A stretch of DNA of 64,000 bases from Planctomycetota bacterium (GTDB lineage Bacteria; Planctomycetota; B15-G4; SIAN01): positions 96,001 to 160,000 of the forward strand of contig JANNXA010000051.1 in the NCBI GenBank assembly GCA_031409275.1. The letters are read 5' to 3'. Shown in pieces: positions 1,478 through 36,992 of the stretch (positions within the stretch are counted from its first letter, which is position 1; every line of letters begins with the position of its first letter). The notes under the pieces were generated by a model. That model had not been told where the DNA came from. It saw only the letters and a list, made by a program, of their open reading frames with translations, and did not search any database. Made by a program: the position numbers and the translations under genes.

Positions 1478-4400
1478 ATGCGCCGCCCCCACCTCCTCGC
1501 ACTCGCTCTCTGCGTCGCCGCGACCGCGCTCTTTGCCCTGCCGCCGCTCGCCGCTCGCGACGAGCGCCCGCCGCTGGACGAGGCGCCCGCGGCGCTGCGC
1601 GATGCGCTCCTCGACGGCGACTTCGAGAACGCCCTGGCGCAGCTCGTCGAACTGGAACGCAGTGAGCCGACGCGCGGCGACCTCTGGGCGATGCTGCGCG
1701 GCCAGATCCACGCAACGCGCGGGGAGGCGGCGCTCGCCGAACAGGACTTCGCCGCGGTCGAGAGTCGATTCGCTGGCACTCCCTGGCGGAGCAAGGCGCG
1801 TTTCGGCCGGGCCAGCGCCTTGCGCGATCTGCGTCGCTTCGCCGAGGCGGAAGCGATCGTCGCGAGCGAGGCGGCACGGTTGCGCTCCCCGGAGCGGCGC
1901 ACCGAGCTCGCGCAGCTCGCGGTCGATCTCGCCGACGCGGCGCTCGATCCGAAGGCCGCGGGTGCCGCCGAGACGCCGGCGTCCGACCCGGCGCTCGCCT
2001 TCGCGCTTTACGAGCAAGTGCTCGGGCTCGATCCGCCGGCGCCCGTCGTGGCGCATGTGCAGCGCCAGCGCGGCCGCTGCCTCTTGGCGCTGGGCCAGCC
2101 AGGACCCGCGCTCGTCGCCTTCACGGCCTACCTCGCCAGCCCGGCGGGTCGCGAACGGAGCGGGGTATCGATCGATGCTCGCCTCGCGGCGGCGCGCTGC
2201 GAGGCCGCCCTCGGCCGCGTCGGCGATGCACGCCGCTCGCTCGAACGGCTGGCGACCGAGCTGTCGCAAGCGCCCGAGCCGGCCATGCGCGCGCGACTCG
2301 GCGACGCGCTCGAAGCGGCCGCGCGCACCTGGCGTCCCGACCTCGCCACCGAACGACTGCTCGCGGTGACCAGCCTGCGCCGTTTCGTCGAGCAGTGCCC
2401 GGACCACCCGCTCGCGTGGACCGCTCGCCTCGACGCTGCGAGCTACCTGGCCGCGGCCGGGGAGACCGAGGAGGCGCTCGCCGCCTTCGACGCGATCATC
2501 GCTGGGCCGGCGGGAGCTGCCGCGGAAGAGGCGACGCGCGCGCGCGCTGAAGCGGCGTTCCGGCGTGGCCAGTTGCTGTTGAGCCAGGGGCGCTGCGAAG
2601 CAGCAGGAGCCGCCTTCGCCGACTGCGTGGCGCGCGACCCGACGGGCCCCCGTTGGGCCGAGGCGCAAGCGGCGATGGTCGAGGCGGAGTATCGGGTCGC
2701 GGCGATCGCGCGCGACCGCAAGGAGTTCGCGGCCGCGCGCGCCGCTCTCACCCGATTCATCTCGCTCCACCCGCTCGATCCACGCGTCGCCGAGAGCCGC
2801 TTCGAGATCGGCGCGCTCTACCGCGATGAGGCCGAACAACTTCGCCAGGCGAACGGGTCGAGCTCGGTCGAGCCGGCGCTCTCGCTCGAACGCTCGGCGC
2901 TCGAGGAGTGGCAGCGTTGCGTTCGACTCCATCCGGGCAGCGACGTCGCCTCGCACGCACTCTTCGCGAGCGGTCGACTCTGGCACGACTCGCTGCTCGA
3001 TCTCGAGAAGGCGGTCGAGATGTGGCGTGCGTGCAGCTTCGGGGCCTACGCCGGCGAAGCTGCCGGCCGCCTCGCGGAACTGCTCACGCCGAGCCTCTCG
3101 GTCGTGACGCCGCGCTCGTTTCGCAGCAATGAGGCGGCGCACCTCGAACTGCTGGCGCGCAACGTTGCTCAGGTCAAGGTGAAGCTCCATCGGCTCGACC
3201 TCGAGGCCTACTTCCGCAAGTTCCTCGCGGCCGACGCCGTCGAGGAGCTCGACCTCGACCTGATCGCGGCCGACCTCGAATTCACGTTCGACGTCCCGGA
3301 CTACGCGCGCTGGAAGGCGTGCCGCGCCCCCATCACGCTGCCGCTCCTCGGCAGCGGCGCGTGGGTCGCCGTCGTCGAGTCGGAGCAGCAGCGCACCACG
3401 ACCTTGGTGCTGAAGAGCGACATCGATCTGATCGTCAAGTCCGCGGCGCGCGAACTGCTCGTCTTCGCCGAGAATCGCCTGCTCGGGACAGCCGCTGCCG
3501 GCGTCGAATTGCTGATCGACCTCGGAGCCGGCGAAGATGGCTCCCGCCGCCAACACACGGGGACCACGGGCAGCGACGGCCTGTTCCACCTGCGCACCGA
3601 GACCCCGTTCGAGCCGAGCGCGCTGCGGATGCTGGCGAAGAGTGCCGCCGACTTCGCCGTGGTTCAGGTGCCGCTGCAGGGGGGCGCCAGCGCACCGACG
3701 CTGCTGCCGCGCGGCCTCGTCTTCACCGATCGGCCCGCCTACCGGCCGGGCCAGCAGGTCGAGATCGCGGCGTTCCTGCGCGACGTGAAGGAGGGAAGCC
3801 TCACCGCCAGCAAAGGCTCCCGCTGGACGCTCTCGCTGCATGACCCGCGCGATCGCCTGGTCCGCAGCGAAACGCTGCTCCTCGACGAATTCGGCACCGC
3901 CGCTGCGAAGTTCGAACTCGACGCGTTCGCGACGCTCGGCACCTGGATGGTGGTGGTCGAGCGGCAGGATGGCCCCACCTTTCGCGGCAGCTTCCTCGTC
4001 GCCGACTACCAGCTCGAACGGGTCACCCTCGACCTCACAGCGCCGCGACGAGTCTGGTTTCGCGGCGAGACGATCGAAGTCGAAGGGCTCGCGCGCTGGC
4101 AACACGGTGCTCCAGTCGCCGACGCCGCGCTGCGCGTGGAACTCCCTGATGGTCGCATCGAAGAGATGCGCACCGACGCGCAGGGGCAGTTCCGCATCCG
4201 CTTCGAGACCGTCGATCTGCCCGAGGAGCGCGCGCTCGCGTTCCAGGCGACCTTGCTCGACGGCGGCGTCGTCGCGTCGGAGACGATCTTCCTCGCGCTG
4301 CGCGAGTTCGACTTGAGCCTCGAACTGCCGACGCGCGCGCTGCTGGCGGACGAGCGTTTCGCCATCGGCGTGCGCGCCACGCGCCGCGACGGCACGCCGA

Positions 4401-7400
4401 TGGCAACGCCCTGCCGCGTCGCGCTCCTGCGCAAGGAGAGCGGCGGCGGCGAAGTGCGTGCGCAGCAGCTCACGGGCACCACGCTCGCCGCCGATGGGCG
4501 CACCACCTTCGAGGCGACGCTCGCGCGCGGCGGCACCTACGTGGTCCGCGCCGAGGCGACCGATCGCTTCGGGCAGCGCATCGTCGCCGAAGGCATGGTG
4601 CTGATCTCCGACAGCGACGACGAGCAGAAGCTGCGCCTGCTTTCCGATCGCACGCGTCTCGAAGTCGGCGAATCGACCAAGGTGCGCCTGCTGCAACGCG
4701 ATGGCGGCGGCTTGCTGCTCCTGACCTGGGAGCTGCACGATGGGCTGCGCTGGCAGGTGCTCGACGCCCGCGAAGCGACGCGCGAGCTCACCATCACCGC
4801 CGACGCCGAACTCGCGCCCGGCTTCGTGCTGGCTGCCGCCGCGATGCGCGGCACTCGTCTCCACATCGCCAGCACCCCTTTCGAGGTGACGCGCGCGCTT
4901 CGCCTCACGGTGGTGCCGCGCACCGCCACGGCAACCCCGGGCGGCGAGCTGACCGTCGACTTCACCACTGCCGATCCGCTTGGACGGCCGCTTTCGGCCC
5001 GCGTCGCGTTGGCTGTCGTCGACGACGCGCTGCTGCGGCAGTTTCCCGACACCACGCCGCTCCCGGAGCGCGTCTTCGCGCTCGGCGGTGGTGCGCCCGC
5101 GCCGTGGCGCCTCTCTTCGAGCTGCACCTTCCGCTACGAGGCGGCACCGGTCGCGATCGCGCGCACCGTCCGCGACGAAGAAGCGCGGCAAGTGGCGACC
5201 GCCGAGTTCGACCGAGAGAAAGGCGGCTTCTTGACGATGCTTGGCTACCTCGGCGACGGCGGCGGCGGCGATGGGCCAGCTAGCGAAGAGCGCCCGGCAG
5301 CCGATCCCGCGGGCAACGCGGACGATCTGGTCCGCGCCACGACGGGTGGTGGCGGCGGCGGCTTTCTGTCGGGCCGCTTGAACCGAAATGCAGTGGCGCG
5401 TTCCAAGCAGCGGGAGGAGGCTGGACGCGCCGCACCCGCGGGTCTCGCCGAAGCGGGGCTCGATGATGACACCGCCTGCTTCGCGCCGGCGATCACCACC
5501 GATGCAGAAGGGAAGGCGAGCGTCACCTTCCGCCTGCCGCAGCGCTCCACCACCTGGCAACTGGTGGCGCGCGGCCTCTCGGTCGACTCGCGCGCCGCGC
5601 TGGCGCAGCAGTCGATCGTCGCTCGCGAGCCCTTCTTCGCCGAGCTGCGAGCACCGGCGACGCTGCGCCAAGGCGACACGCCGCGCCTGCTCGCCACGCT
5701 CTTCTCGGAACCGGGCGCGGTCGGTCAGGTCGAGCTGCGACTGCGCGTGCACCTCGGCGACCAGGTGACCTCGTTGCCGGCCACGCTCGCCCTTTCGCAG
5801 AGCGGCACCACGGAACATCTCTTCCCGGCGCTCGCCGCGCTGCCGCTCACGGCCGACGCGAAGTTCGAGTTGGTGGCCACGCAGGTCGGAGTCACGCCGG
5901 CTCGCGAGCAGCGGAGCACGCTCACGTTGCCCATCGAGCCTTTCGGCCTTGAACGGCGCGCCGCGAAGAGCGGCGAGCTGCGCTCTTCCGCCCGCTTCAC
6001 CCTCGAGCTGCCGGGCGAGGTCAGCTACGTCGCGCGCTCTCTCGATCTCTGGATCGCGCCGAGCGCGGCGCGCCTGCTGCTCGACGACGCGCTCGAGCGG
6101 ACGCTCGATCGGCGCAACGCGCCGCGCGTGCAGCCGCAAGCCGACGTCGCCACCGAACTGCTCGGCACCTGCGAGGTGTTGGCGCTCGGGCAGCAGCTCG
6201 TCACCGGCGCCGCGGCGAGCGAGCTCGACCTCGCCGCCTTGCGTTCGCAGGCGCAAGGGCTGCTGGCTCGCCTCGTCGTCACCCAGCGGGACGACGGCGG
6301 CTTCGCCTGGGCCGGCGACCATGGCAGTGACCGTCCGACCACGGCGCTCGCGCTCGTGGCGCTTGCCCGCGCGCAAGCGCTCGGCTTCGCGGTGCCGGTG
6401 GCGACGATGGGCGCGGCGCGCCAGTACGTCGAGACGGCGTTTCGCAACTCGGGCCCCGACTCCGACGAGCTGAAGGCGATGCTGCAGCTCGCGCTCGCGG
6501 GCCAGGGCGCTGCCGACGCGGCCGCGCTGCAGCGACTGCATCGCGTGCGCGCAACGCTCTCACCCGCGGCGCTCGCCTACACCTGCCTGGCGTTGGTGGC
6601 GAGCGGCAAGGAGCCGATGGCGATCGATCTCGCCGCGCTGATCGAGCAACGCGCGATCGTGGCACCGGCGGGGGGCGCCAGCCGCTGCTGGGACGCGCAG
6701 CAGAATCGCCGATTCCAACGCTCGCCGTTGGAGACCAGCGCGCTAGCGCTGCTCGCGCTTTCAGCCGCGACCCCCGCCTCGCCCACCCTTGCGGGCGCCG
6801 TCGACGCGCTGCTGGCCGAGCGGCCGTGGGCACCGGCGCGCGCCGCCGGACTCGTGCGCGCCGCCCTCGCCCGCTTCTACGCCGATGTGGTTCCCGAACG
6901 CAGCGAAGCGGTCGTCCGCGTGCGCGTGAACGATCGCCTGTTGCCGCCGGTGCTCATGCCGGCCGGCGCCGGCGCGCAGGCGGTCGCCATCCCCGCCGAG
7001 CTGCTGCGGGAGGGCAAGGTGAAGGTGGAGCTCGAGCTCGAAGGACGCGCACGACCGAGCTACGCGGCGCTGCTGCGCGGCTTCACGCCCGACGTGCGGC
7101 GCACCGACCGCGACGACCTGCGCTGGTCGAACGTGGTGGTCAGCGCCCCCGCGCCTCTGCTGCGCGGTCGGCCGCTCGACACCGGCTTCAGCGTCCTTTC
7201 GGAAACGCCGCGCGACAGCTGGATCAACACGCGCGCCGAGCTTGCCGTCGGCGAACTCGCCGAAGTGCAGCTCTCCTGCTACCTCGGCCGCGAATCGGTC
7301 GACGCGGACGACACCGACCCCTACGAGCTCGCCGTTGCGCTGCCGGCCGGTGTCGAGCTGCTGCCCGGGTCGTTGAACGGGAACTTCACCACCTTCGCGC

Positions 7401-9355
7401 TGCGACCGGGCGCGATCGACGTTCGGCTGCTTCGCACGAGCTCGTGGACATCGCTCCGATTCACCGTCGTCGGACGCGTGCCCGGCGACTGGCGCGCGCT
7501 GCCGCCGCAAGCGCGCTCCGCCGTCGAGCTCCATCGCGCCGCGAACGGCGAGGAGTGGAAGCTGCGCGTCCTGCCGGTCGGCGCGAAGAGCGCTGACCCC
7601 TATCGCCCGACGCCCGACGAACTCTTCTCGCGCGGCAAGCGGCTCTTCGAGGCCGGGGAACGCGCCGCAGCTGCCGTTCCGCTCGAGGCGCTGGTGGCCG
7701 AGTTCGGCGCCAAGCTGAAGGAGGCGGCTCAGCGCGAGGTCGCGCGCATGCTGCTCGCGTGCGCGCTCGAAGCGGGCGATGCCACGCGCATCGTGCGCTC
7801 GTTCGAGACCGTGAAGGAGAAGGACCCGGCGCTGGCGTTGCCCGCCGACGAAGTGCGCGCGGTGGCGGCCGCCTACCGCTCGCTCGAGGAGCATGAGCCG
7901 GCGCTCGAACTGACGCGCGCGCTGATCGACGAGACGTTCCGCCGCGACCTGCAGCTCCCGGCGATGCTGGCCGGGGCGAATCGCATGCGCGCCTCCTTCG
8001 AGTTGCGCGAGCGCCTCTGGCTCGACTACCCCGACACGCCCGCGGTGAAGCAGTCCTATCTCGCCCTCTCCGATGACCTGCTCGCGCTGGCTCCACGCGC
8101 CCACGAGAGCGCGCTGCTGCGCGCCGAGAAGCTCGATCGCGCGACGCTGCAGCGCGATGGCATGCGGATCCTGATGCGCTTCCTCGCCTTCAGCCCGAGC
8201 GACCCGCTCGCGCCGGAAGCGGGGCTCGGGTTGGTCACCGCGTGGCTGGCCATCGAGGAGTGGGAGGCTGCTTCGGGCCTCGCCGAACGTCTCGCGAAGC
8301 GCTGGAGCGAGCCGCGCTTCGCCGATTCGTTCCTCTACAGCAAGGCGGTCGCCGAATGGTCGCTCGGCCACGACGACGCGGCGCGCGCGCTGCTTGAGCG
8401 AATCGCCGTCGCGGAGTACGTCGACGCGAGCGGTCGCAAGGTGCCCTCCGTCAACCGCGACCTCGCCTGGTACATCCTCGCGCAGATCCACCACGCGCGC
8501 CGTGACGCCGCCGCCGCGATGCGCTGCTACGAGAAGGTCGCCGGCGCCTTCCCCGATGCGCGCGACGCGCTGCATGGGTTGCGCGAGCGACTGCTCGAAC
8601 TGCCCGAAGTGACCAGCGCTCGGCCGGGCGAGAAGCCACAGGTCGAGCTGCGTTCGAAGAACCTCGCGCGGGCGCAGTTGCTGGTCTATCCGGTCGACTT
8701 GATGACGCTCTGCCTGCGCGAGAAGAACCTCTCCGGCATCGCGGGAGTGAACCTTGCCGGCATCGCGCCAGCGGCGCGCCTCGACGTCGACCTCGCGAAG
8801 GAGTCGCAGTTCGAGCCGCACACGACGAAGGTCGCCCTCGACCTGCCGCAGGCGGGCGCCTACCTCGTGCTGGTGCGGGCGGACGAGCACCACGCTTCGG
8901 GCCTCGTGCTGGTGACGCCGCTCGACCTGCAGGTGAAGGAGGAGAGCGACGGTCGCATGCGCATCCACGTGCAGGATGCGGCGAGCGGCGCCTTCCTGCG
9001 CGACGTCGACGTGCGGGTGATCGGCTCGCGCAACGACGCCTTCACGGCGGGCCGCACCGATCCGCGCGGCCTCTTCGTGGCCGAGGGGCTCGAAGGCACC
9101 GCGACGGTCATCGCACGCGCCGGCGAACGCGCCTACGCCTTCTGGCGCGGCGCGCGCCAACTCGGGCGCGAGGAGCAGTCGAAGCGCAAGGAGGCGGAAC
9201 ACGGCGGCGACGACCAGTTCCGCGAGCAGGGCGACTACTTGAAGAACGTCGTCGAACTGAACCGCGGTCTGCAGCAACAGCGCGCCAGCAACCTCGAACA
9301 GGAGTTCAAGAAGGCCGGGCAGGCGGTTCCGGTGCAGAGCCAGCAGGAGGAGTAG
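1478..9355 (+). CDS. Secreted TPR-containing alpha-2-macroglobulin family protein (2625 aa)
   Basis: Signal peptide, N-terminal TPRs, MG motif FTDRPAYRPGQ, Gly-rich bait-like region, TTDAEGKASVTFRLP...TTWQLVARG, TED-like QRDDGGFAW, C-terminal TPRs. Confidence 0.9.
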   Translation: MRRPHLLALALCVAATALFALPPLAARDERPPLDEAPAALRDALLDGDFENALAQLVELERSEPTRGDLWAMLRGQIHATRGEAALAEQDFAAVESRFAGTPWRSKARFGRASALRDLRRFAEAEAIVASEAARLRSPERRTELAQLAVDLADAALDPKAAGAAETPASDPALAFALYEQVLGLDPPAPVVAHVQRQRGRCLLALGQPGPALVAFTAYLASPAGRERSGVSIDARLAAARCEAALGRVGDARRSLERLATELSQAPEPAMRARLGDALEAAARTWRPDLATERLLAVTSLRRFVEQCPDHPLAWTARLDAASYLAAAGETEEALAAFDAIIAGPAGAAAEEATRARAEAAFRRGQLLLSQGRCEAAGAAFADCVARDPTGPRWAEAQAAMVEAEYRVAAIARDRKEFAAARAALTRFISLHPLDPRVAESRFEIGALYRDEAEQLRQANGSSSVEPALSLERSALEEWQRCVRLHPGSDVASHALFASGRLWHDSLLDLEKAVEMWRACSFGAYAGEAAGRLAELLTPSLSVVTPRSFRSNEAAHLELLARNVAQVKVKLHRLDLEAYFRKFLAADAVEELDLDLIAADLEFTFDVPDYARWKACRAPITLPLLGSGAWVAVVESEQQRTTTLVLKSDIDLIVKSAARELLVFAENRLLGTAAAGVELLIDLGAGEDGSRRQHTGTTGSDGLFHLRTETPFEPSALRMLAKSAADFAVVQVPLQGGASAPTLLPRGLVFTDRPAYRPGQQVEIAAFLRDVKEGSLTASKGSRWTLSLHDPRDRLVRSETLLLDEFGTAAAKFELDAFATLGTWMVVVERQDGPTFRGSFLVADYQLERVTLDLTAPRRVWFRGETIEVEGLARWQHGAPVADAALRVELPDGRIEEMRTDAQGQFRIRFETVDLPEERALAFQATLLDGGVVASETIFLALREFDLSLELPTRALLADERFAIGVRATRRDGTPMATPCRVALLRKESGGGEVRAQQLTGTTLAADGRTTFEATLARGGTYVVRAEATDRFGQRIVAEGMVLISDSDDEQKLRLLSDRTRLEVGESTKVRLLQRDGGGLLLLTWELHDGLRWQVLDAREATRELTITADAELAPGFVLAAAAMRGTRLHIASTPFEVTRALRLTVVPRTATATPGGELTVDFTTADPLGRPLSARVALAVVDDALLRQFPDTTPLPERVFALGGGAPAPWRLSSSCTFRYEAAPVAIARTVRDEEARQVATAEFDREKGGFLTMLGYLGDGGGGDGPASEERPAADPAGNADDLVRATTGGGGGGFLSGRLNRNAVARSKQREEAGRAAPAGLAEAGLDDDTACFAPAITTDAEGKASVTFRLPQRSTTWQLVARGLSVDSRAALAQQSIVAREPFFAELRAPATLRQGDTPRLLATLFSEPGAVGQVELRLRVHLGDQVTSLPATLALSQSGTTEHLFPALAALPLTADAKFELVATQVGVTPAREQRSTLTLPIEPFGLERRAAKSGELRSSARFTLELPGEVSYVARSLDLWIAPSAARLLLDDALERTLDRRNAPRVQPQADVATELLGTCEVLALGQQLVTGAAASELDLAALRSQAQGLLARLVVTQRDDGGFAWAGDHGSDRPTTALALVALARAQALGFAVPVATMGAARQYVETAFRNSGPDSDELKAMLQLALAGQGAADAAALQRLHRVRATLSPAALAYTCLALVASGKEPMAIDLAALIEQRAIVAPAGGASRCWDAQQNRRFQRSPLETSALALLALSAATPASPTLAGAVDALLAERPWAPARAAGLVRAALARFYADVVPERSEAVVRVRVNDRLLPPVLMPAGAGAQAVAIPAELLREGKVKVELELEGRARPSYAALLRGFTPDVRRTDRDDLRWSNVVVSAPAPLLRGRPLDTGFSVLSETPRDSWINTRAELAVGELAEVQLSCYLGRESVDADDTDPYELAVALPAGVELLPGSLNGNFTTFALRPGAIDVRLLRTSSWTSLRFTVVGRVPGDWRALPPQARSAVELHRAANGEEWKLRVLPVGAKSADPYRPTPDELFSRGKRLFEAGERAAAAVPLEALVAEFGAKLKEAAQREVARMLLACALEAGDATRIVRSFETVKEKDPALALPADEVRAVAAAYRSLEEHEPALELTRALIDETFRRDLQLPAMLAGANRMRASFELRERLWLDYPDTPAVKQSYLALSDDLLALAPRAHESALLRAEKLDRATLQRDGMRILMRFLAFSPSDPLAPEAGLGLVTAWLAIEEWEAASGLAERLAKRWSEPRFADSFLYSKAVAEWSLGHDDAARALLERIAVAEYVDASGRKVPSVNRDLAWYILAQIHHARRDAAAAMRCYEKVAGAFPDARDALHGLRERLLELPEVTSARPGEKPQVELRSKNLARAQLLVYPVDLMTLCLREKNLSGIAGVNLAGIAPAARLDVDLAKESQFEPHTTKVALDLPQAGAYLVLVRADEHHASGLVLVTPLDLQVKEESDGRMRIHVQDAASGAFLRDVDVRVIGSRNDAFTAGRTDPRGLFVAEGLEGTATVIARAGERAYAFWRGARQLGREEQSKRKEAEHGGDDQFREQGDYLKNVVELNRGLQQQRASNLEQEFKKAGQAVPVQSQQEE

Positions 9356-10230: not shown

Positions 10231-12789
10231 TCATTTCCCCTCGAGCCAATCGGCGAAGAGCTGCGGGTCGTCCTTGAACTTCTGGTCGAACGAGGTGTGT
10301 CGGATCAGCTTGCGCGTCTTCGGGTCGATCGCGATGTAGTACGACTGCGCGTGGTAGCCGATGTAGCCGCGCTCGATCTCGATCCACTTCTCTCCCAGCG
10401 TGTCGTGGTCGGTGTGGAGACGCGCTTCGATGAACCCTGCCTTGAAAGCCCGGCGCACGGCCGGGTGCGGGAAGATCTCCTCTTCCATGACGCGGCAGTT
10501 GATTCAGGTAAAGCCGGTGAAGTTCAACAGCACCAGCTTCCCCTCCTTCTGCGCGCGAAGGCACGCGGCATCGAGGTCGTCGACGATCGTCACGTGGGCG
10601 GCATCCACTGCCGATTCGCCCCCGCCGCCGCCGCTGCGCGTCGAATAGGGCGGCGCCATCACCGTCATCACCCAGTCGAGCTTGCTGCCGAGCGCGCCGT
10701 TCAAGTTGTAGAGGCCAAACAGCATGAAGGCGACGCCGGCCACCATGCGACCGGAGCCGACCGACGCGTGCAGCCGAACCGGCACTCCCGGCTCGAGGAC
10801 GACAGGCTCGCTGTCCTCATGCAGCCGGATCACGCCCCAGAGATAGAGCGCCGCGGCCAAGAAGATGCCGGCCCACCAGAGATAGAAGAGCTCGCGCGAG
10901 ATGACGCCCCACTGCAACACGAGGTCGGCGTTCGAGAAGAACTTGAGCGCCGCCGCCAGCTCGATGAATCCGAGGCAGACCTTGAGCGTGTGCATCCACT
11001 CGCCGCTCTTGGGCAGCGTCTTCGCCTTGGCGGGCAGCAGCGACAGGAAGACGAACGGGATCGCCATCGTCAGCCCGAAGACGGTCATGCCCAGCACGAC
11101 GCGCAGCATGCTCGACGCGCCCGCCGCCAGCAGCGAGCCGACGAACGGAGCGGTGCAGGTGAACGAGGTGATCACCAGCGTCGCGCCCATCAGGAAGACG
11201 CCGACGTAGCCGCCCTTGCGCGTCGCCTTGCCGGCCGCCTGCAGCAGGAACTGCGGCGGCTGCAGCAGGAGCAGCCCGAAGAGCGAGAGCGAGAAGACGA
11301 CGAAGAAGGTGCCGATGATCAGGTTCGTCACCCAGTGGGTCGCGAACGGGATGATGATCGGACCGACGAGCGCCCCGATCACCACGTAGATGATCACGAT
11401 GCCGGCACCGTAGGTCAGCGAGAGCGGCAGGATCGAGGTCTGCCGCGCCGTCGCCTGCTTGGTGAAGTAGCTGATCGTGATCGGGATCATCGGGTAGGTG
11501 CACGGCATCAGCAGGCTGAAGAGCCCCCACCCGAATGCGGTGAGCAGGAAGACTCCGAGCGGCAGCTCTTCGAGTTTGGCCGCGGCCTTGTTGACCGGCG
11601 CGGCGGAGGCCGTCTCGTCGGGCGCCTCGTTGCCGTTCGCCGCGCCGCTCGCCGCGCCGCTCACCGCACCGTCCTGCGCCAGCGCCGCGCCGACCACGAG
11701 ATCGGCCGGGAATGCGGCGAAGAGCGCATCGAGGCCGGTGCCCGCGTTCTTCACGCGCTGGGCGTACGGCACGCAGCCGCTCGAGTTGCATGTGTCGCCA
11801 TCGAGGCTCAGCGTCAGTGCCGAGAGGTCCGCGCCCGCTGCTGCCGTCCCGCGCAGGTAGACGACAAAGGTCCCCTCGTGGACCCAGAGCCACGTCTTGG
11901 TGGCGCCGAACTCCTGCGGCTCCCTCTTCGGCTCCGGGAAACGCGCGGCACTCCACTCGACGGCCGCCCCCTCGAACGCGAGCGTGGTCGGCTTGCCGAT
12001 CGCGTCCGGGCCGCCGAGGTCCGCGTCCGTCGGCCCGTGACCGATGTGGTAGCCCGGATCGACGGAGATCTGCACCGCCGCCGTGACGTCGGCCCCATCC
12101 GCGCGGACGAAGAACTGCGCGTGCGCACGCAGATCGTCGAAGGCGCCAAACGACGGGACGGAGAACTCGCGGGCCGGCTCGACTTTCGGTTCGGGCGCGC
12201 CCGGCGCCAGCAGATCGGCGGGGAACTTCTCGAAGAGCTTGTCGCGGCCCGCGCCGCCGCTCGTCACCTTCTGCTTGTAGGGCACGCAGCCGGCCGCATT
12301 GCAGGTCTGACCGCGGATGGTGAGTTCGATCGTCGCGGGGTCGGCGGCCGCGTCGGTCCTGCGTCCGCGCACCCACACGACCGGCGAGCCGTAGTGGACG
12401 TTCAACCAGGTCTTGATCGCTCCGAACTCCTGCTCCTCGCGCTCAGGATCGGGGAAGCGCGGGACGCTCCACTCGAAGCCGGCGCCGGCGAAGGCCAGCG
12501 TCGTGGGCATGCCGGCGGCATCGGGTCCGCCGACGTCGGCGGCGGTGGGACCGTGACCGATGTGGTAACCCGGCTCGAGCACGATCTCGACGGCGACCTT
12601 CACGTCGTCGCCGTCGACGCGCAACCACAGCTTGGTGTCGGCGCGATTCTGAGCGAACGCCGCCGTCGACAGCAGCGCCAGGACGACGCAGCGCAGGCTC
12701 ACCTGCAGGAAGCGTGCGAGTCGAGAGCGTCCACTGCGGCGCCGCGCGCCGCGCTCCGTCTCGATCGGTAGGGACGACGTGACCACCAT
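10231..12789 (-). CDS. dsbD: DsbD-type thiol:disulfide interchange protein with in-frame UGA (candidate selenocysteine, UxxC)
   Basis: Two N-terminal domains each ending in C-x4-C; TM domain with LLMPCTYPMIP and SFTCTAPFVG; thioredoxin domain LLNFTGFT-TGA(10504-10506)-INCRVMEEEIF continuing in frame to 10231. Start position approximate. Confidence 0.85.
10460..10496 (-). promoter_or_regulatory. Putative bacterial SECIS hairpin
   Basis: mRNA +18..+34 after the UGA: GGAAGA-GGAGA-UCUUCC (6-bp stem, loop starting GG), extendable by GCG/CGC and GCC/GGC with bulges. Confidence 0.55.
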
Positions 12790-12934
12790 CGGCTGAAGTG
12801 CTCCTCGACGCATCGCGCGACCTCGCGCCTCGTTGCGCCCGCTTCGTCTACGAACCGCGCCGTCATTGGTGCCGCTCGGAGAAGCGCGGGAGGTTAACCG
12901 ACCGCGTGCGCGCTGGCGTGCGCCCGGGGTGGGC

Positions 12935-14077
12935 TCAGCTGGCGAGGAGCTCGTCGTAGAGCGCGCCGTAGCTTCGGACCATGGCTGCGAGGTCGAACTC
13001 GGCCTGCGCCTTTTTGCGGTTCGCCGCGCCGATCGCCGCACTCGCCGCCGGATCATCGAGCAGCGCCGCAAGCGCGGCGGCGAACGTGGCCGGCTCCCGG
13101 GAGGCGACCACGCTGCGCTGCCCCTCCGGCGCGACCATCGTTGCGACATCGCCCACCGCGGTCGCAACGGCCGGAAGTCCGCACCCCATCGCCTCGATCA
13201 GCGAGATCGGCATCTGCTCGGTGTGCGAGGTGAGGGCGAAGAGGTCCATCGCGTGGTAGGCGTCGCGCGGATCGGGGAGGTTGCCGGCGAAATGGACTCG
13301 CGCCGCGATGCCGCGTGATTCGGCCAGCGCGCGCAGGCGCCCCTCTTCCGGCCCGTCGCCGACGATGAGCAGTTGCGCGGTGCGCAGCGCGCCGCTCGTC
13401 GCCGCGCGCGCCGTCGCCACGGCGTCGATCAGCAGCTCGAGCGCCTTCTCCGGTCGCAGCCGCGCCACGGTCCCGATCACCGGCACCGCCTCGGCAAGTC
13501 CGAGCGCGGCCCGCGCCGCACGCTTCGCGGCGACGTCTCGCACCGGCGCGAAGTGGTTCAGGTCGATGCCGTTGCGGATGTAGACGCGTTGCGCCGCCGG
13601 CACGTGCCAGGTGTGCTGGGCATGGCGCAACAGGAGCTGCGAAGGGACGACGACGCGCGACACGAGCGGCAGCACGAGTCGGCGGAAGCGGACGCGGCGC
13701 GGCAGCTGGCCGCTCGCCTCATCGGGCCCGAATCCATCCTCGGCGTGCAGCAAGCGGCGATAGCCGAAGAGGCGCGCGCCCGGAATCGCCTCGATCGCGC
13801 CCCAGTTGTAGGTCACCACGAGATCGGGTTGAAGGCGCGAAATCAGCCGCCCGAGTCGCCAGGAGTAAGCACCGAGCACTCCCTTCTTCGGCGGATCGGC
13901 GTAGGCGACGCGCGAATGGCCGGCGAGGCGCGCGGCACAGGCGAAGTTGCCATCGAGCCCGACGATCGTGTGGCGGTAGCGATCGGGCAGCGCGTGGATC
14001 AGCGTCGCCGTGCGCACTTGCGGCCCGCCGGCCGCGAACGTGCTGAAGAGGTGGAGCAGGTGGCGCTCGCCCGCCAT
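12935..14077 (-). CDS. Glycosyltransferase family 4 (GT-B)
   Basis: GGPQ N-terminal motif; IGTVARLRPEK, IVGDGP, EQMPISLIEAMGCGLPAVATAVG. Confidence 0.92.
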   Translation of the reverse strand: MAGERHLLHLFSTFAAGGPQVRTATLIHALPDRYRHTIVGLDGNFACAARLAGHSRVAYADPPKKGVLGAYSWRLGRLISRLQPDLVVTYNWGAIEAIPGARLFGYRRLLHAEDGFGPDEASGQLPRRVRFRRLVLPLVSRVVVPSQLLLRHAQHTWHVPAAQRVYIRNGIDLNHFAPVRDVAAKRAARAALGLAEAVPVIGTVARLRPEKALELLIDAVATARAATSGALRTAQLLIVGDGPEEGRLRALAESRGIAARVHFAGNLPDPRDAYHAMDLFALTSHTEQMPISLIEAMGCGLPAVATAVGDVATMVAPEGQRSVVASREPATFAAALAALLDDPAASAAIGAANRKKAQAEFDLAAMVRSYGALYDELLAS

Positions 14078-35864: not shown

Positions 35865-36869
35865 TCAGGAAGCGTTGATCGTGTCGAGCAGTTCCTTCAG
35901 GCGCGGGTTGATCTCGAGGCCGAGCTCGGAGACCTTCTTCGCGTACTTCTTCGCCACCTCGGAGTTCTTCAGGAACTGGAAGTTCCAGAAGGCCGCGTTG
36001 ACGTAGAGCTGCATCGCGATCTCCTTGTCCTTCATCGGCCCCAGCGCATCGAGATCGTCGATCTTCTTCGCCGCCGCCTTCAGCTCCTCTTCGCTGCCGA
36101 TCGAGCCGGTTTCGGCGAGGACGACCTGCTCGAGCAGCCCGTTCTCGTTCTTCGGATCGAGCTCGCGCGCCGCAGTCACGACGTCGGCAGCGATATCGCC
36201 AGCGTGCAGGAGCGCCTTCACCGCCTTCAGCTTGCGGCCGGCCTTGTTCTCGGCATCGAGCGTCAACGCGAGCCGCGCGATGACCGAGAACTTCGCGGCA
36301 GCGGGCGCGTCGCCGTCGAGAGCGGCGAGCTTCTCGATCGCCTCGTCGAGCAGCTTCTCCTTCTCGGCGCCGGTGGCCGCAGCGAACTTCGCCTCGAACG
36401 CCTTTGCGTCAGCGAGCGCCGCCTTGCCGCTGGTCCGCATCTCGGTGATGTGCGTGACGTACGGCGCTGCTCCGCCTTCGCGGTAGCCGGATCGGCCGAA
36501 GACCTCGCCTTCGGGCGTCATCAGCAGGACCGTCGGGTAGCCGCTGATCTTGTACTGCTTGGCGAGCTCCGCGTTGCGATCGGGGTTCGGGACCTTGGCC
36601 TTCGCCTCGTCGCCTTGCGGGTAGTCGAGCGCGACCAGCACGAACTGATCGCTGACGCCCTTCAGGAACTCCTCATGGGAGAAGACCTCTTCGTGCAGCT
36701 TGATGCACCAGCCACACCAATCGGAGCCGGTGAAGTCGACGAAGAGATCCTTGCCGGACTCCTTGGCGAGCTTGGCGGCCGCATCCCAGTCGGCAACCCA
36801 CGAGTCGGAACGATGCGTCGCCGGACTGGCGAACGCGGTAGCGGCGGTAAGGAAGAGGTGAGCGAGCAT
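35865..36869 (-). CDS. Exported thioredoxin-family protein with helical C-terminal extension
   Basis: Signal peptide; FTGSDWCGWC, LDYP, GYPTV. Confidence 0.88.
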   Translation of the reverse strand: MLAHLFLTAATAFASPATHRSDSWVADWDAAAKLAKESGKDLFVDFTGSDWCGWCIKLHEEVFSHEEFLKGVSDQFVLVALDYPQGDEAKAKVPNPDRNAELAKQYKISGYPTVLLMTPEGEVFGRSGYREGGAAPYVTHITEMRTSGKAALADAKAFEAKFAAATGAEKEKLLDEAIEKLAALDGDAPAAAKFSVIARLALTLDAENKAGRKLKAVKALLHAGDIAADVVTAARELDPKNENGLLEQVVLAETGSIGSEEELKAAAKKIDDLDALGPMKDKEIAMQLYVNAAFWNFQFLKNSEVAKKYAKKVSELGLEINPRLKELLDTINAS

Positions 36870-36992
36870 GTCCGAGGGACGTCCTTTCGTTCCAGAAGAA
36901 GCGCTTCCGCCATCGCTGGCGCTAGCCGACGACGACACGGAAGTGCGGGGTGCGGCAGCCCGCCGCACGAATCGATACGACGGGGCGAGAGC

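Follow-up and report, generated by a model that had tools for sequence, protein, structure and literature searches.

A planctomycetotal dsbD gene with an in-frame TGA: a widespread, mis-annotated predicted selenoprotein

The locus at positions 10231-12789 (minus strand) of the window, i.e., the 64,000-nucleotide stretch of Planctomycetota contig JANNXA010000051.1 analyzed here, raises the question of whether an in-frame TGA in a gene of the DsbD family ends the protein or is read as selenocysteine (Sec, U). The gene occupies a single frame from the ATG at 12789 to the stop codon at 10233-10231 and encodes 852 residues if the TGA is translated as U. The only internal stop in this frame is the TGA itself, codon 762, at 10506-10504 (minus strand). 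The sequence around it (10521-10486, minus strand; TTC ACC GGC TTT ACC TGA ATC AAC TGC CGC GTC ATG) translates as FTGFT-U-INCRVM(E), 90 open codons follow the TGA, and Cys765 supplies the second active-site residue. The open reading frame (ORF) track cuts the gene into two pieces, 10504-13167 and 10231-10488; an earlier note on this DNA had placed both in one frame, and this was confirmed over the 852 codons with their single TGA. Very probably, as far as can be judged from sequence, this is an intact DsbD-family gene with UGA762 decoded as selenocysteine, so that a Sec-x-x-Cys motif would stand in the outward-facing thioredoxin domain of a membrane reductant conduit. DsbD with an in-frame TGA is, moreover, a widespread, mis-annotated predicted selenoprotein.

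The codon lies in the gamma (thioredoxin-fold) domain (10234-10587, minus strand; PF13899, 31.3 bits), which contains U762-x-x-C765, Asn756 at position -6 relative to U762, and Ser816. The FTG-type gamma domain of the solved chain 3f9u_A, which we take to be from Bacteroides, matches it in the FTGxxCxNCRxME motif as well as over the remaining domain (E-value 2e-9), with Cys in that protein at the position of the TGA here. The TGA was previously suggested to sit on the attacking Cys, and this is borne out both by its alignment with the first Cys of FTGYGCVNC in 3f9u_A and by the presence of TGC or TGT at this codon in 15 of 30 relative loci.

The protein was matched in 39 of 61 related genomes, and 15 rows, that of the genome itself included, have one internal TGA. 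In the 30 relative loci that were fetched, the codon is TGA in 14 (own locus included) and TGC or TGT in 15, one locus being cut by a contig end; the position alternates between TGA and Cys codons, as the earlier note had proposed to check. The TGA is not unique to this assembly, being common to more than 100 homologues, and the 90 codons behind it are open and conserved, with no sign of the decay that was considered as a possible refutation. A pattern scan of GTDB yielded 119 loci from 25 of 64 parts (approximately 310 estimated in all), of which 115 were gamma-domain homologues with an open frame past the TGA and four were chance matches. The membrane domain was present in the same frame in 74 of the 76 true matches with long flanks, and uncut loci had 63-260 open codons after the TGA. 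The titles of the matches name mostly Planctomycetota, with two Armatimonadota. One carrier is a cultured bacterium, Engelhardtia mirabilis Pla133, which has the TGA form, the hairpin H2 described below, and tRNA-Sec. Some TGA forms have a C-terminal extension of 100-170 residues past the gamma domain, with 258-260 codons after the TGA in three loci (L056, L062, L127) and 194-197 in five others (L080, L082, L085, L114, L116). Locus L111 has a TGA-form gamma domain with just 68 open codons upstream, which points to a split gene or a frameshift.

The TGA form was found only in genomes with selA. In an evenly drawn sample of 301 genomes of the phylum (218 with selA and 83 without), a shorter pattern matched 103 genomes; 79 were judged to contain the true motif from the 29-nt match, and one of these proved to be a chance match once fetched, leaving 78. 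All 78 belong to the 218 selA genomes. No TGA-form DsbD was found in the 83 selA-less genomes, where all 15 pattern matches (14 genomes) were fetched and were not DsbD. If the predicted decoding is true, envelope reduction would be tied to selenium supply in about one quarter of the sampled Planctomycetota genomes.

Ordinary annotation truncates the gene, as had been anticipated, and databases end the protein at the TGA. Among the best 120 database matches, 73 stop exactly at FTGxx, 42 are full-length with Cys, five are unclassed, and U occurs in none; the closest named homologue, labelled Planctomycetes, is 86% identical. Many truncated entries would be corrected by the read-through frame. 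An assembly error was ruled out, as the codon is conserved and contigs of three sequencing runs agree: these contigs (not raw reads), all from one study, cover the TGA with no variant letter, two of the runs (X1 and X2) being possibly the source of this DNA itself.

The selenocysteine machinery that the earlier note had suggested looking for is present in the genome, with profile matches over the cut-offs for selA (484 bits), selB (334), selD (338), and tRNA-Sec (76 bits). The tRNA-Sec has the canonical Sec shape and a UCA anticodon and is the only UCA tRNA seen in the genome; selD carries an in-frame TGA of its own. Genome-wide reassignment of UGA was ruled out: TGA is the main stop codon, terminating 1167 of 1419 long ORFs, and thus the genetic code is not reassigned. 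A codon-bias scan of the genome gave 150 candidate read-through TGAs, 23 of them with redox-like motifs; 12 genes besides dsbD were retained, plus SelD, which is a lower bound. Three retained genes exceed the cut-offs of curated selenoprotein families (VPGUxxT type 2, ArsC-like, and Trx7/PDZ). Resemblance to TlpA, thioredoxin or peroxiredoxin was seen in several, and approximately seven have a signal-like N-terminus by eye. The genome is therefore selenoprotein-rich by prediction.

The whole gene, read through the one UGA, has the order alpha1-alpha2-membrane-gamma, with DsbD_TM, DsbD_N, and Thioredoxin_7 of Pfam all over their cut-offs. The N-terminal leader (12652-12789, minus strand, as are the features that follow), likely a signal peptide as judged from hydropathy (peak at residues 27-46), includes a hydrophobic segment that runs up to AFA-Q. 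It is followed by DsbD-alpha-like domain 1 with Cys163-x4-Cys168 (12205-12651; PF11412, 25.8 bits against a cut-off of 25) and by its tandem copy, domain 2, with Cys334-x4-Cys339 (11695-12135; 59% identity to domain 1 over 146 amino acids, E-value 5e-63). The DsbD/CcdA membrane domain (10936-11550; PF02683, 90.6 bits, cut-off 27.1) matches the CcdA chain 5vkv_A (E-value 8e-4) and contains Cys430 (MPCTYP) and Cys545 (FTCTAP), both invariant across 45 aligned proteins. The protein thus has three features of the DsbD family, namely the membrane Cys pair, the alpha Cys pair (with PF11412 just over the cut-off), and the C-terminal (C/U)xxC thioredoxin domain. It is the sole DsbD_TM match over the cut-off in the genome, which is 93% complete and contains a cytochrome c assembly gene as well.

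The membrane electron-transfer hub with Sec in an extracytoplasmic thioredoxin domain, as originally envisaged, is supported, Sec insertion itself being predicted from sequence. In E. coli DsbD, electrons from cytoplasmic thioredoxin enter at the membrane domain and reach first the C-terminal and finally the N-terminal domain (PMC2631958). By analogy, cytoplasmic thioredoxin would pass electrons to Cys430/Cys545, which would then reduce the U762-C765 selenenylsulfide; the resulting selenolate would reduce the Cys pairs of both alpha domains and, through them, envelope clients. ScsB is known to reduce TlpA and a periplasmic peroxiredoxin (PMC3322552), and exported redoxins are encoded in this genome; for these reasons, likely clients would be cytochrome c maturation and the exported TlpA- and thioredoxin-like proteins of the genome, several of them predicted selenoproteins. 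The window encodes a second thioredoxin-like protein (35865-36968, minus strand; PF13899), which is of the Cys type and might be a DsbD client.

The active site may differ in reactivity from that of E. coli. At neutral pH, selenocysteine is in its ionised state. Position -6 is occupied by Asn in 102 of 116 Sec forms and in 43 of 57 Cys forms. In E. coli, Cys461 has a pKa of 10.5, which guards it against reoxidation in the periplasm (PMC2631958), and part of this high pKa is due to Asp455 at the -6 position (PMC3961690). From this comparison we infer that Sec at the attacking site and Asn at -6 would both point to a more reactive nucleophile; the selenolate, with Asn in place of the pKa-raising Asp, would, if this is true, do the opposite of the low-reactivity Cys of E. 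coli.

Two hairpins were found in the mRNA behind the UGA. In H1 (10470-10486, minus strand), a stem of 6 bp closes the loop GGAGA, which begins at +23 relative to the UGA; the energy of this hairpin is -6.6 kcal/mol. H2 (10449-10465, minus strand) also has a 6-bp stem, with a loop CGUGC (GGUC in the family consensus) starting 44 nt after the UGA and an energy of -11.1 kcal/mol; H2 is the candidate distal SelB-binding hairpin. The published model of the bacterial selenocysteine insertion sequence (SECIS) places the loop 16-37 nt after the UGA, requires G in the first two loop places and an energy of -7.5 or below (PMC13188914), and some genes do not fit it (PMC13188914, PMC10778597). H1 fits in distance and G whereas its energy does not, and H2 fits in loop and energy whereas its distance does not. 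The locus shares with the model the in-frame hairpin and the G, often G-U, that starts a small loop, but the conserved G-U loop begins at 44 nt and lies behind a second hairpin.

H2 is conserved and covaries. The hairpin, with its G[G/U] loop at +43 to +46, occurs in 81 of 122 TGA forms, compared to a mean of 34 (maximum 44) after synonymous recoding, and in 2 of 15 Cys forms; about 1% of random TGAs of the genome (4000 draws) have a comparable hairpin at this distance. Double-sided changes were observed at all five pairs, in 61 cells against 20 when shuffled, exceeding every slid control. The Ala-Val-Ala encoded at H2 is spelt GCG GTC GCC in 62 of 69 sequences, approximately 8% being expected from codon use. 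Among proteins with Asn at -6, 70 of 102 Sec forms retain Ala-Val-Ala, compared to 7 of 43 Cys forms, hence this constraint tracks the UGA. Of the 41 TGA forms lacking H2, 33 can fold a hairpin with a G[G/U] loop within the usual 16-37 nt, and the loop types GGUC, CGUGH, and AGUU recur between +18 and +31 in further genes of the genome that are predicted to encode selenoproteins. In the arrangement that we favour by a narrow margin over even chances, SelB would bind the G-U loop of H2, 44 nt after the UGA, with H1 folding up the stretch between; the alternatives are that H1 alone or both hairpins serve. A SECIS working at 44 nt would, if true, extend the range of geometries accepted for UGA recoding in bacteria, with consequences for gene finders and for selenoprotein expression.

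A number of results weigh against this picture of the protein and of its recoding signal. The NCBIfam DsbD model NF001419, which describes a proteobacterial subfamily, scores the whole protein at 111.5 against a cut-off of 330. Codon 816 (10342-10344, minus strand) encodes Ser in this protein and in its genus mates G001, G003, and G004, the column having Pro in 112 of 116 Sec and all 57 Cys homologues (169 of 173). The Pro opposite the active site is the cis-Pro of the thioredoxin fold, and its change to Ser may alter or weaken the active site. Most Cys-form relatives also possess selA and selB, so that Sec is not required for the DsbD protein in general. The trees described below are FastTree trees only, and kin sequences are not independent. 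As for the RNA, RNAalifold over all 119 downstream sequences gave no consensus structure, the 107-nt region of the window folds no better than shuffles (z -0.9), and H1 covaries too (32 double-sided changes against 11 shuffled); since H1 covaries and has a G-first loop at +23 here, H2 need not be the SelB site.

This last point leads to the possibility, tentative yet substantial, that Sec is inserted with H1 as an ordinary SECIS and SelB site, H2 serving ribosome spacing, mRNA stability or the like. With its 6-bp stem and G-first loop at +23, H1 lies within the published model (PMC13188914), and it was found in 93 of the 122 TGA forms, as opposed to 50 once these had been recoded synonymously. 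On the other hand, its energy misses the threshold of the model, its loop sequence is not conserved in the family (position 27 being G in 52, C in 43, A in 17, and T in 10 of 122 sequences), and it is H2 that has the loop types used by other Sec genes. A different role for the UGA, which we consider unlikely, is that of a selenium-dependent switch, giving full-length Sec-DsbD with selenium and otherwise a useful truncated alpha-alpha-membrane form served by other thioredoxins. UGA recoding in E. coli is 30-40% efficient and selenium-dependent (PMC4513850), so that a truncated DsbD product is likely made as well; it would retain all membrane segments and both alpha domains, and no other DsbD_TM match over the cut-off exists in the genome. 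However, a stable or active short form is hypothetical, and the frequent replacement by Cys suggests that the full-length protein is what counts.

If UGA762 were simply a true stop, the product would be an alpha-alpha-membrane protein acting, like CcdA, with a separate thioredoxin (PMC2631958), and the tail would be a remnant or a small ORF from the ATG at 10488. This is the choice of the gene callers, seen in the 73 database matches ending at FTGxx, yet it is highly improbable: stops would have hit the same catalytic codon, always as TGA, in 115 homologues with open codons behind it, the ORF from 10488 lacks both active-site residues, and the TGA form was found in selA genomes only. The 39 protein-search matches show either TGA or no stop, TAA and TAG not having been searched by pattern. 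Hardly any more credible is reading of UGA762 as Cys, by a SECIS-dependent tRNA-ReC/SelC*, or as another residue. Such tRNAs occur in some Armatimonadota (PMC13582414), and two TGA matches are labelled Armatimonadota. Against this reading, the one UCA tRNA seen in the genome is of canonical Sec shape, its tRNA-Cys is normal (with poor pairing in a second 'Cys' call), and selA and selD occur along with three other TGA genes that exceed curated selenoprotein cut-offs; SelC* was not among the models searched.

Returning to the selenoprotein reading, the Sec and Cys forms are intermingled on the tree. When the U/C column was masked, an unrooted FastTree tree built from 134 proteins showed 19 changes of the U/C label, 14 of which are required by branches with good support, and a large number of Cys rows fall within groups of Sec rows. 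The Cys rows placed in this way come largely from database proteins, with one confirmed in DNA. Of the 301 genomes, three supplied DNA for Cys forms lying inside the Sec clade, just one of them (L310) from the main clade; it has TGT at the codon and a broken H2 stem, and its genome retains selA and tRNA-Sec. Such natural Sec/Cys sister pairs offer a direct test of the benefit of Sec in an oxidising compartment.

Another DsbD subtype, which likewise has TGA in place of the attacking Cys codon, was found by the pattern TADW-TGA-x-x-C-[K/Q]-x-N-E, which gave 120 metagenome loci (L183-L302) in a scan of 58 of the 64 parts. Of these, 117 are true TADW-U-xxC matches (e.g., L193:1355-3232, minus strand), and among the 78 loci whose flanks are long, 68 show a membrane Cys motif of DsbD in the same frame further upstream. 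The hairpins of this subtype lie at about +23 with loops GGUC, CGUGU or AGUU, and some share the GGC-GGUC-GCC core with H2. Homologues of one such protein are labelled Akkermansiaceae and Verrucomicrobiales, and 79 of its best 120 matches stop just before the TGA; in 151 phylum genomes, the TADW-TGA pattern gave five raw matches. On a membrane-domain tree without an outgroup, the FTG and TADW subtypes separate cleanly and each has Cys members, which is consistent with at least two origins of Sec. It may be, with the odds evenly poised, that bacteria of the Planctomycetes-Verrucomicrobia-Chlamydiae (PVC) group have put Sec into the central membrane conduit for envelope reduction at least twice, in the FTG type of Planctomycetota and in the TADW type of marine Verrucomicrobiota and others, feeding exported selenoenzymes, and that a hitherto undescribed SECIS of two hairpins operates in the main FTG clade, with the loop for SelB binding 44 nt from the UGA and thus farther away than SECIS-based gene finders look. 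For a classical Sec-DsbD, one strict pattern (YADW-U-V-x-CK) gave no match in metagenome contigs, which is no proof of absence.

Compared to E. coli DsbD (PMC2631958, PMC3961690), the protein agrees in domain order, in the Cys pairs of the membrane and alpha domains, and in a C-terminal thioredoxin fold whose first active-site residue is the attacking one and is followed by Glu seven places on. It differs in having two alpha domains with Cx4C (Cx5C, Cys103-Cys109, in E. coli), predicted Sec for Cys461, Asn for Asp at -6, Ser in place of the usual Pro, and a score below the NCBIfam DsbD cut-off. DsbD homologues of Bacteroides and Leptospira form distinct branches (PMC3322552).

Among catalogued selenoproteins, the 'Thiol:disulfide interchange protein' entries (PF13098, UxxC; PMC13188914, Table 1) share UxxC and the general thioredoxin-fold class. 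The Global Ocean Sampling (GOS) set lists such selenoproteins as 'Trx-like 2', cd02953, with 22 reads (PMC2398784). FTG motifs and DsbD membrane domains are absent from all 22, and most start with a signal peptide of their own; one read, JCVI_READ_100177, resembles a fragment of classical DsbD-gamma with U. The model cd02953 is presumably that of DsbD-gamma. A fusion of a Prx-like domain with PF11412 in a later GOS paper is different from Sec-DsbD (PMC9402790). TsoB (NF045694), a selenoprotein resembling a rhodanese/DsbD fusion, shares the DsbD-like membrane domain (120.5 bits on the common part), but the protein studied here scores far under the cut-off of 805, has no rhodanese match, and contains one U, whereas the catalogued TsoB motif is UxxxxU with two Sec. 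TsoB itself had no match in 121 phylum genomes, where the control gave none either.

Full-length Sec-DsbD is absent from the 119 catalogued selenoprotein families examined, although UxxC 'thiol:disulfide interchange' thioredoxins are listed, and no NCBIfam model covers it. A DsbD selenoprotein was not found by term searches in the main texts of PMC12013277 (deep-Sep), PMC5029168 (Peng 2016), PMC1794560 (Zhang 2006), and PMC9312934 (a 2022 review), nor did a literature search including CcdA, ScsB, and DipZ yield a description of the full-length form; in both cases supplementary lists could contain such proteins. UxxC chemistry in a thioredoxin fold is the familiar part, and the catalogued relatives lower the surprise; the apparently new parts are the multi-domain membrane conduit as host protein, the apparent double origin, and the distal hairpin.

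In the window, upstream neighbours of dsbD are glycosyltransferase and oxidoreductase genes, and downstream, on the opposite strand (1478-9355), lies a gene for a 2625-amino acid bacterial alpha-2-macroglobulin-like protein. A promoter scan around dsbD and a search for a terminator downstream of it found none, and no sel genes or tRNAs were seen in the window, the ORF scan having taken a selection of ORFs. In two RNA runs, just 5% of words matched, giving no RNA evidence for the gene.

Ten of the predicted read-through TGA redox genes elsewhere in the genome encode thioredoxin-, TlpA-, peroxiredoxin-, AhpD-, glutaredoxin-, and ArsC-like, VPGU, and Trx7/PDZ proteins, many with signal-like N-termini. 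Several relatives (among G009-G057) gave more than one match over the cut-off, two or three for selB and two for selA. Two predicted selenoproteins of the genome that carries this dsbD have no family match. One (L177:452-1684, plus strand) is a predicted exported protein with the motif G-C-V-U-N-N-G and a hairpin loop CGUGA at +18. The other (L173:420-1640, minus strand), matching neither Pfam nor NCBIfam, has an S-C-U-G motif, presumably resembling that of vertebrate selenoprotein N; among its 23 homologues, the shorter ones stop near the TGA and the longer ones have Cys-Cys.

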